Source: Eledone cirrhosa (taxonomy: Eukaryota). Taken from it: DNA of 64,000 nucleotides. A program made the position numbers and the translations under genes. This document shows positions 59,080 through 61,135 of this stretch, piece after piece; the stretch's first letter is position 1; each line of letters opens with the position of its first letter. The notes beneath the pieces are model-generated. The model saw only the letters and a list, made by a program, of their open reading frames with translations. It searched no databases and was not told the DNA's origin. The DNA is taken from assembly GCA_964016885.1 (NCBI GenBank), contig OZ024742.1, positions 75,950,001-76,014,000 of the forward strand, written 5' to 3'.

Positions 59080-61135
59080 GGATTAGTACATCTACCAACA
59101 TATGTGTACAGATGTACACTCATGCTAGCAAATATATAAGTTATGTCTTAGTACCGATGTGGTTCTATGCAGGGGGGCGGGGTGCAGAACAATTATATGA
59201 AATACGTAAGATAAGAAAATTTTAAAAATTAAAAATCAACTTACTTACTAAAATTTTCACTCCAACTAATTAGTTTCTGTAATGGGATAAATATAGTTAC
59301 ATAATATAACTATAGAGAATTCATTACGTCATCAAGGAGTCTATTCTCAGCTAAGTTCCCAGGCAATGCGCGGACACTAGGAACCCATATAAAAATAATA
59401 ATTCAGTGGATGAAATAAAGCTAGCGAGGACTAAATTCGGAGCATTACAGAAACTAATTAGTTGGAGTGAAAATTTAGAGTAAGTAAGTTGATTTTTAAT
59501 TTTTAAAATTTTCTTATTTTACGTCTTTCATATAATTGTTCTGCACCCCCCTGCATAGAACCACATCGGTACTAAGACATAACTTATATATTTGCTAGCA
59601 TGAGTGAACATCTGTACACATATGTTGGTAATTGTACTAATTCTCTATATTTATCTCCAAATTATTTGTTGAGCAAACTTGCCAAAATTTACTGCTGTTT
59701 CATGGTAGTAGTAGGCTCTTGTCATAATGCCACCCCGCTCCTAACTGATTAACCTCGGTGTCACGTGATTGATTCTTTAGAATCTGCCACTGACCAGAGG
59801 CAGTGAACTTTTTTCAATGCTCCGAATTTAGTCGTCGCTAGCTTTATTTAATCCACTGAATTATTATTTTTATATGGGTTCCTAGTGTCCGCGCATTGCC
59901 TGGGAACTTAGCTGAGAATAGACTCCCGAATGACGTAATGAATTCTCTATAGTTATATTATGTAACTATATTTATCCCATTACAGAAACTAATTAGTTGG
60001 AGTGAACATTTTAGTAAGTAAGTTGATTTTTAATTTTTAAAATTGTCTTATTTTACGTATTTCATATAATTGTTCTGCACCCCGCCCCCCTGCATAGAAC
60101 CACATCGGTACTAAGACATAACTTATATATTTGCTAGCATGAGTGTACATCTGTACACATATGTTGGTAGATGTACTAATTCTCTCTCTCTCTAAATTAT
60201 TTGTTGAGCAAACTTGCCAAAATTTACTGCTGTTTCATGGTAGTAGTAGGCTCTTGTCATAATACCACTCCGCTCCTAACTGATTAACCTCGGTGTCACG
60301 TGATTGATTCTTTAGAATCTGCCACTGACCAGAGGCAGTGAACTTTTTTCAATGCTCCGAATTTAGTCGTCGCTAGCTTTATTTAATCCACTGAATTATT
60401 ATTTTTATATGGGTTCCTAGTGTCCGCGCATTGCCTGGGAACTTAGCTGAGAATAGACTCCCTGATGACGTAATGAATTCTCTATAGTTATATTATGTAA
60501 CTATATTTATCCCATTACAGAAACTAATTAGTTGGAGTGAAAATTTTAGTAAGTAAGTTGATTTTTAATTTTTAAAATTTTCTTATTTTACGTATTTCAT
60601 ATAATTGTTCTGCACCCCGCCCCCCTGCATAGAACCACAAAGGTACTAAGACATAACTTATATATTTGCTAGCATGAGTGTACATCTGTACACATATGTT
60701 GGTAGATGTACTAATTCTCTATATTATCTCCAAATTATTTGTTGAGCAAACTTGCCAAAATTTACTGCTATTTCATGGTAGTAGTAGGCTCCTGTCATAA
60801 TACCACCCCGCTCCTAACTGATTAACCTCGGTGTCACGTGATTGATTCTTTAGAATCTGCCACTGACCAGAGGAAGTGAACTTTTTTCAGTGCTCCGAAT
60901 TTAGTCCTCGCTAGCTTTATTTCATCTACTGAATTATTATTTTTATATGGGTTCCTAGTGTCCGCGCATTGCCTGGGAACTTAGCTGAGAATAGACTCCC
61001 TTATGACGTAATGAATTCTCTATAGTTATATTATGTAACTATATTTATCCCATTACAGAAACTAATCAGTTGGAGTGAACATTTTTATAAGTAAGTTGAT
61101 TTTTAATTTTTAAAATGTTCTTATCTTAAGTCTTT
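59080..61135 (+). repeat. About 3.1 tandem copies of a 535-538-bp hammerhead-containing unit, preceded by an inverted partial copy
   Basis: CATTACAGAAACTAA at 59443, 59978, 60513 and 61051. Inverted piece 59080-59446. Confidence 0.92.
60457..60538 (+). ncRNA. Intact hammerhead ribozyme in the 535-bp array
   Basis: ACTCC-CTGATGA-C-GTAATG..CATTAC-A-GAAA-CTAATTAG-TT-GGAGT. Confidence 0.88.

Follow-up and report, generated by a model that had tools for sequence, protein, structure and literature searches.

Architecture of the 59-kb array

The window analysed here is a stretch of 64,000 nucleotides of Eledone cirrhosa DNA. Around position 59 kb it contains an array of tandem units organised in two arms: an inverted arm of 370 nt meets a direct arm of 1699 nt head to head. 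A second, related array lies at 24 kb. The features are the following (numbers with a plus sign are distances in nt after the predicted ribozyme cut):

24255 to 25029, plus strand: array of the 523-nt subfamily (24-kb array), a single arm of about 1.5 units that ends at +181
58831 to 59080, no strand: left microsatellite flank on the target side, (CT)19(TA)91(AG)16
59077 to 59446, minus strand: inverted partial arm, whose 3' end is the distal one of the two fixed sites (about +182 to +195), then (TC)n(TA)n
59259 to 59340, minus strand: hammerhead motif belonging to the inverted arm, with C3 of its core (TTGATGA, 59335-59329) changed
between 59264 and 59263, minus strand: predicted cut of the inverted-arm motif
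59443 to 59446, no strand: head-to-head junction, where the arms overlap by CATT
59443 to 61141, plus strand: direct arm of 3.17 units of 535-538 nt, 3' end at the proximal site (+70), then (TA)n
59443 to 59468, plus strand: 5'-truncated motif, 3' half only, predicted cut after 59463
59922 to 60003, plus strand: hammerhead motif 1, core CGAATGA at 59927-59933 (U4 and G5 changed), predicted cut after 59998
60457 to 60538, plus strand: hammerhead motif 2, intact, core CTGATGA at 60462-60468, predicted cut after 60533
60995 to 61076, plus strand: hammerhead motif 3, core CTTATGA at 61000-61006 (G5 changed), predicted cut after 61071
61137 to 61210, no strand: right microsatellite flank on the target side, (AT)26 then (GT)n

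The units of the direct arm are spaced by 535, 535 and 538 nt and are 94-97% identical to each other; the units of the locus differ at 1.5% of their sites, which is the rate of the whole family. Every complete unit carries one type I hammerhead motif, and three of the four complete cores are damaged. The microhomology at the junction amounts to 4 nt if the inverted arm had the CAATG variant of the first two direct units, and to 2 nt if it had the family allele CAGTG. There is no open reading frame of at least 100 codons inside 59150-61110. The initial annotation had described an inverted partial copy joined by CATT to about 3.1 units, the lack of an open reading frame and three different core lesions (CGAATGA, CTTATGA, TTGATGA), all of which we found as it gave them; it had missed that the final direct unit has CTAATCAG in place of CTAATTAG in the stem III loop. 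One internal unit (position 60174) has, right at the distal priming site (see below), a variant with a TC repeat that is absent from the other sampled loci and may be the scar of an earlier priming event or of an exchange with the end of the inverted arm. Contig C1748 was considered as an allele of the locus and rejected, as its flank differs.

A dispersed family of non-coding repeats

The locus belongs to a dispersed and very abundant non-coding repeat of 535 bases, a non-LTR retrozyme. Several features of this class are present: tandem units of a few hundred bases, one type I hammerhead motif in each, no coding capacity, a dispersed distribution and a compact predicted RNA fold. In a scan of the genome (3.0 Gb in 1796 contigs), the 16-mer CAGAAACTAATTAGTT, which covers GAAA, stem III and the cut triplet, has 13,339 exact copies against 9 for the control, and a 23-mer specific to the closer subfamilies has 531. 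About 250 stretches of the superfamily were sampled, either as top-scoring hits or as the first listed matches on contig C1; they are a small, non-random part of the family and come from one assembly. The family counts exclude the 59-kb locus, contig C1748 and a duplicated locus on contig C28. This last one is a two-armed insertion found twice, 6.2 kb apart (L036, G000:C28:114637550-114644561), either through a local duplication or as an assembly duplicate.

The sampled loci are short and scattered over many contigs. Full units with an intact core form 23 clusters at 5% distance and measure 521-558 nt, and the 19 representative units that were aligned contain no ORF-sized insert. The 24-kb array aligns with the 59-kb unit across the whole unit at about 75% identity and is therefore a sister subfamily rather than an independent witness. 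Other loci of the 535-nt family have two consecutive complete motifs, the condition under which Li et al. 2026 speak of "active" copies, whereas at the 59-kb locus motif 2 is the only intact one.

Structure and covariation of the hammerhead

The complete type I core (C3UGANGA9, G12AAA15.1 and U16.1H17) and its three stems are intact at 60462-60533. Motif 2 consists of stem I (ACTCC/GGAGT), a C.A mismatch, stem II (GTAATG/CATTAC) with an extended hairpin, GAAA and the palindromic stem III, AACTAATTAGTT. Rfam at gathering thresholds gives no match in the window, and the hammerhead call therefore rests on the motif scan and on covariation. The core is intact in 77 of the 96 family units found by anchor.

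Stem II covaries through all four Watson-Crick pairs. Its variants, counted by copy, are GTAATG/CATTAC (101), GTAAGG/CCTTAC (98), GGAATG/CATTCC (63), GCAATG/CATTGC (32), GAAAGG/CCTTTC (10) and GTATGG/CCATAC (3). Without guidance, RNAalifold recovers stems I and II from 19 of the 23 cluster representatives, with two-sided changes in 21 of 109 pairs in this alignment. The named hammerhead structure is 96.7% paired, while slid controls reach 36-49%; it has 25 two-sided cells against 6.5 in shuffled alignments, and its score is attained by none of 500 shuffles, a procedure that ignores relatedness. Placed on a tree of the remaining unit sequence, the second position of stem II shows its four pair types in separate groups, and the covariation therefore reflects a few events, not dozens. 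These observations support a hammerhead under structural selection, as far as the aligned copies can tell. The proposal that covariation marks a selected ribozyme is in this respect better founded than it was on the comparison of two families from which the initial annotation started. The change it had reported in stem II, from GGAATG/CATTCC to GTAATG/CATTAC, is truly two-sided, but the family around position 24250 that it used as a comparison is not independent, given the identity mentioned above. The compensation it had claimed in stem I stands in part: one change is either two-sided or a paired indel, depending on how an ambiguous alignment is resolved, but the other is one-sided (G-U/G-C).

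Almost all copies have a C.A mismatch at the base of stem II (C.A in 359 and 360 of 364 copies), so that the 10.1-11.1 pairing is absent. A motif with such a base would be rejected by the filter that Perreault et al. applied (PMC3088659). U.U at this place is reported there and, for axolotl, in PMC7229834, and U.U variants are reported to be active. Stem III is invariant in the sample; it is a 12-nt palindrome that can form three pairs, comparable to the palindromic stem III reported for animal hammerheads that form dimers (PMC4209133, PMC7229834). The predicted circles fold compactly (z of -4.3 and -4.0 against 40 shuffles), whereas the antisense of the 59-kb unit folds near the shuffle mean. 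Across subfamilies, the extension of stem II is often capped by TTCG, TACG or TGCG (alignment A1, columns 547-573), caps that resemble UNCG tetraloops.

Marks of a probable Penelope-type insertion

The 3' ends of the arms are not distributed at random along the unit: 192 of 211 lie at one of two fixed sites, either at +70 or at about +182 to +192 after the predicted cut, about 112 nt apart. Moreover, the two sites are used in pairs. The 81 head-to-head pairs of the 535-nt group comprise 61 with one end of each kind, one long-long pair and no short-short pair; the remaining 19 have one end unclassed, so 61 of the 62 classed two-armed loci use both sites. The 24 pairs of the 523-nt subfamily behave similarly (17 with one of each, no long-long, one short-short and six unclassed). 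The 59-kb locus obeys the same rule and both of its arms run into microsatellite sequence. More generally, inner junctions mostly overlap by a few bases and the flanks of the insertions are AT-rich or microsatellites.

With a purified protein of a Penelope-like element (PLE), reverse transcription was found to initiate at two internal positions and to proceed on both strands, and this accounts for the genomic tail (PMC11167929). Inverted truncated copies, a tail of 30-40 bp on one end and microsatellite targets are also among the reported features of PLEs (PMC8557442, PMC3846280). The paired fixed 3' ends of the retrozyme match this two-site internal initiation and the PLE "tail" reported in these sources. 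An abundant PLE family with intact 859-aa frames (RT and GIY-YIG) occurs in the same genome. Judged by eye, it shows the same end rule at 7 of 8 two-armed loci, and its tail measures about 41 nt once a TA repeat is discounted. A search for a partner PLE sharing sequence with the retrozyme gave no informative match in the 40 loci of the one PLE family examined.

The 859-aa family is abundant and young. One of its frames is also found at L281:1404-3983, and a 5'-truncated, broken copy with RT, Cys-rich linker and GIY-YIG is located in the window at about 12740-13930 (minus strand). By eye, copies of the family end at either of two sites separated by about 41 nt, and the terminal repeat of the family contains a minimal hammerhead-like motif with C at U4 (CCGAAGA, L281 4372-4400).

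The interpretation that we favor, and that we consider very probable, is that a Penelope-like element supplied the enzyme that copied a 535-nt retrozyme into a (TA)n microsatellite, and that the cores of the new copy then decayed neutrally. In that case, a parental array would have been transcribed as a multimer, and the ribozyme would have cut some, not all, of its sites, with two motifs probably pairing through the 12-nt palindrome to act as a dimer. The PLE protein would have broken the (TA)n target, and each DNA end would have primed reverse transcription on the sense RNA, one at about +70 and the other at about +182. Each cDNA may have stopped at random or at a cut 5' end, and the two would have been joined head to head through microhomology. 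The copy would later have mutated, its units exchanging sequence locally. PLE-driven insertion of a multimeric non-coding RNA had already been proposed from the layout of the locus, and both the paired fixed 3' ends and a pile-up of 5' ends argue for it.

5' ends of the arms and the nature of the template

The 5' ends are variable, but 28 of 209 fall within +1 to +20 after the predicted cut, when 7.9 would be expected under a uniform distribution. Among arms of at least 300 nt (n = 159), 21 begin in this interval and three in the 20 nt before the site. The 523-nt group contributes less clearly (6 of 70, p = 0.055), and three or four of its ends are alignment breaks of other subfamilies. The peak region is AT-rich and partly palindromic and thus offers microhomology; seven ends lie at +7, six of which come from three loci with palindromic junctions. 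A second peak, with 18 ends at +385 to +406, is probably due to anchored sampling.

The pile-up after the predicted cut suggests that cutting takes place in vivo and that some templates are linear. Yet 186 of the 209 arms cross at least one predicted cut site. The simplest reading of both observations is that of linear multimers cut at some sites only, and the pile-up points to such partly cut molecules for at least some copies. A similar pattern of 5' ends would be left by a circle whose junction blocks copying. In vitro, eight of nine predicted Xenopus retrozyme dimers are reported as uncleaved (10.64898/2026.07.22.740005).

Scars of A-to-I editing were also sought and not seen: in the 535-nt group, A>G (131) does not exceed T>C (184; rate ratio 0.95, p = 0.69), and in the 523-nt group T>C (40) exceeds A>G (12). 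The substitution spectrum is strand-symmetric, in keeping with ordinary decay.

Probable neutral decay of the ribozyme cores

The initial annotation had suggested that the lesions of the 59-kb cores may reflect selection against cleavage, and had named in advance the comparison of mutation densities in the core and in the rest of the unit as a test. For this purpose, 310 segments from 141 loci were each set against the most similar copies found elsewhere in the sample. With the 59-kb locus left out, core sites changed at the same rate as the background (46/2522, 1.8%, against 1408/87901, 1.6%; p = 0.38). The same holds for copies found with an anchor outside the ribozyme (20/1054 against 188/10645, p = 0.71), of which 19 of 96 units have a damaged core (one of the 97 sites was dropped as too short). 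Among the sampled copies, about one in six has a damaged core. Changes in 239 copies were counted at C3 (3), U4 (19), G5 (5), A6 (5), G8 (3), A9 (4), G12 (4), A13 (4) and A14 (2). Since G8, G12, A13 and A14 are not enriched and the core rate equals the background, the suggestion of selection against cleavage is not borne out. The damaged cores most likely result from neutral decay of the inserted copy, to which a mutational hot spot at U4 contributed. Nevertheless, neutral decay alone does not explain the changes at U4 (17/211) or the 59-kb locus (p about 0.01).

U4 is the strongest core site and has changed to all alternative states (17 of 211 copies: A in 5, G in 6, C in 3, deletion in 3), against 29/2311 for the other ten core sites; on its own, it lies about five-fold above the background. 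The excess is replicated in two samples, 8/108 against 6/648 and 11/131 against 9/786, where six other T sites changed at about 1%. We read it as an age-dependent local hot spot, judging from the distribution of changes among groups of copies: U4 is altered in 1/74 and 1/34 copies of two young subfamilies and in 0/67 of an unrelated 468-nt family (see below). The -2 base of stem I is about as hot (17/207); it changed in 16 of 239 copies and its partner, which is not hot, in 7. U4C is reported to lower activity, yet to be tolerated in a viroid (PMC3088659).

One could go further and regard the copies as a fossil record of the ribozyme at work in the germ line. The PLE enzyme would then take linear multimers that had partly cut themselves as templates, prime on them at two sites separated by about 112 nt and run off at the cut; the excess at U4 would be the footprint of the folded ribozyme, produced either by copying errors at the U-turn or by selection for slowed cleavage, and that footprint would have hit the CUG of three of the four cores at the 59-kb locus. 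We deem this extended scenario, taken as a whole, unlikely. Quite improbable, too, is the idea that U4 changes are errors of reverse transcription at a modified or strained U-turn base, each pass leaving a different scar. Such errors would fit changes that are multi-allelic, replicated in two samples and often accompanied by a change at a neighbouring base (8/19 against 41/220, p = 0.03), as well as the quietness of like contexts elsewhere in the unit (0-1 changes in each CCTG or CTGA word) and the mild enrichment of 5' ends near C3 (15 against 6.3). Nevertheless, the younger groups have few or no such changes, which fits accumulation with age in DNA, and the stem I base is about as hot as U4. 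A constant error at U4 across all hammerhead families was ruled out by the 0/67 of the 468-nt family and the low counts of the young subfamilies.

The 59-kb locus itself is a mild outlier in core lesions, and modestly so. Changes affect 4 of 49 core sites there against 30 of 1951 other sites (p = 0.009), and the probability that at least three of four cores are damaged is 0.012 at the family rate of 18/119; the locus was chosen because of its lesion pattern, so that these values of about 0.01 are after the fact. Clustering of lesions within loci is significant with the locus (p = 0.03-0.04) and not without it (p = 0.13-0.24). Its private variants recur as blocks in several units and in both arms and therefore do not represent independent draws. 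Moreover, the U4 hot spot raises the chance of a CUG lesion to about 10% per unit (30/293), which makes the locus less surprising. Elsewhere, all three cores of L033 (G000:C3:157511068-157512418) are changed in C-U-G (CGAATGA, CACATGA, CTCATGA), and the double change CGAATGA recurs at three loci.

A bias at the level of the template seems very doubtful. Read-through transcripts of parent arrays with dead or slow ribozymes would be copied preferentially and their lesions inherited, in keeping with the many arms that extend across cut sites and with blocks of variants absent from the other sampled loci, as expected from a mixed parent array. Local gene conversion is an equally good explanation of these blocks. 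An increase of lesions in longer arms was considered as a trend and rejected: the difference between arms with at least three motifs (8/29) and shorter ones (36/210) is not significant (p = 0.20), and arms with one motif and with several are equal (22/118 and 22/121). The bias also predicts enrichment at all essential positions, which is not seen.

We find it highly improbable that selection acted at the level of the host, that is, that the insertion lay in a transcribed gene and core lesions were favored as cutting harmed the host RNA. Three observations speak for it: the local excess of lesions just given, the one other locus with three of three cores damaged, and the reported under-representation of retrozymes in genic regions of Xenopus (10.64898/2026.07.22.740005). 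Yet, apart from the family-wide equality of core and background, the excess among the counted core positions is confined to U4, clustering depends on a locus picked for its lesions, a plus-strand core is still intact and one of the lesions sits on the strand opposite to it. In the window and the adjoining 10 kb on either side, nothing but transposon fragments could be recognised, although a long intron may span the locus. Lastly, we give practically no credence to a purely DNA-based origin of the multimers, in which unequal crossing-over would have expanded a solo PLE terminal repeat into satellite arrays, a route put forward in the discussion of 10.64898/2026.07.22.740005 and congruent with private variants shared block by block (some local exchange may occur), as the loci are short and dispersed, the arms are inverted with fixed 3' and variable 5' ends that peak at the predicted cut, and the structure covaries across the whole unit.

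Comparison with known systems

Non-LTR retrozymes and their proposed dependence on PLEs are already published (PMC7229834, 10.64898/2026.07.22.740005). As described in these sources, the metazoan elements share with the present family non-coding tandem units, one type I hammerhead in each, low GC, thousands of copies, a compact predicted fold, a palindromic stem III suited to dimers and coexistence with PLEs. The unit studied here (520-558 nt) is longer than the RNAs of 170-400 nt reported as tested in PMC7229834 and falls within the range of 51-972 bp given in 10.64898/2026.07.22.740005. It differs from the reported hammerheads in stem II, through the C.A mismatch at the base and the long hairpin extension. 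As far as consulted, both papers are silent on retrozyme insertions with two arms and paired fixed ends and on 5' ends lying at the cut.

With the reported EN+ PLEs and their pLTR "tail" (PMC11167929, PMC8557442, PMC3846280), the family has in common its partial tandems, an inverted copy truncated at the 5' end, a tail confined to one end, AT-rich or microsatellite targets and two internal RT start sites downstream of the hammerhead. Contrary to those elements (PMC11167929), the family has no ORF, and its tail is about 112-120 nt long, when 30-40 bp are reported for PLEs (PMC8557442, PMC3846280). In the experiments of Frangieh et al. (PMC11167929), uncut RNA was the main in vitro substrate and no reads ended at the cut, whereas about 13% of the arms start at most 20 nt from the predicted cut in our sample. 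The minimal PLE hammerheads, as presented in PMC4209133, have the same type I topology, short stem I and palindromic stem III region, and opposite-strand pairs 100-700 bp apart are mentioned for them. They differ in lying in pLTRs that flank an ORF, not in tandem non-coding units, and in their stem III, which can form three pairs in our family.

A search of the mostly open-access literature, supplements aside, found no paper on the 535-nt family, none on retrozyme insertions with two arms and none on core decay at particular positions; the supplements of PMC7229834 reportedly list further invertebrate repeats, which may include relatives. Since the class and its proposed link to PLEs are in print, the 59-kb locus is an ordinary one. 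The 535-nt family provides genome-scale support for the mobilisation of retrozymes by PLEs, with a tail about three times the reported length. Cutting at the predicted site in vivo, for which the evidence is indirect and comes from genomic copies, would bear on whether the templates are circles, uncut RNA or cut multimers. The excess at U4 is small, but replicated.

Genomic surroundings and neighbouring elements

The 28 selected frames of the window correspond to Helitron, helicase and RT fragments, with one sub-threshold match to DUF3149. No host exon was recognised in the window and the 10 kb on each side (frames from 54.5 kb on and those of the two 10-kb flanks were judged by eye). Helitron fragments (Helitron_like_N and PIF1 helicase) occupy 52094-54469.

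A second, unrelated and very young hammerhead array with five 468-nt units and a U.U base of stem II is located at 14159-16486 (minus strand). The 22-mer upstream of this array has 9,491 exact copies in the genome, and none of the 67 sampled cores of its family is damaged. Single hammerhead-like motifs are found at 4790 (minus strand), 17451 (plus strand) and 58702 (plus strand). The one at 4790 resembles the 468-nt family but has a C.A base of stem II. The one at 58702 lies directly to the left of the 59-kb insertion and follows a frame that, by eye, resembles the C-terminus of a PLE.
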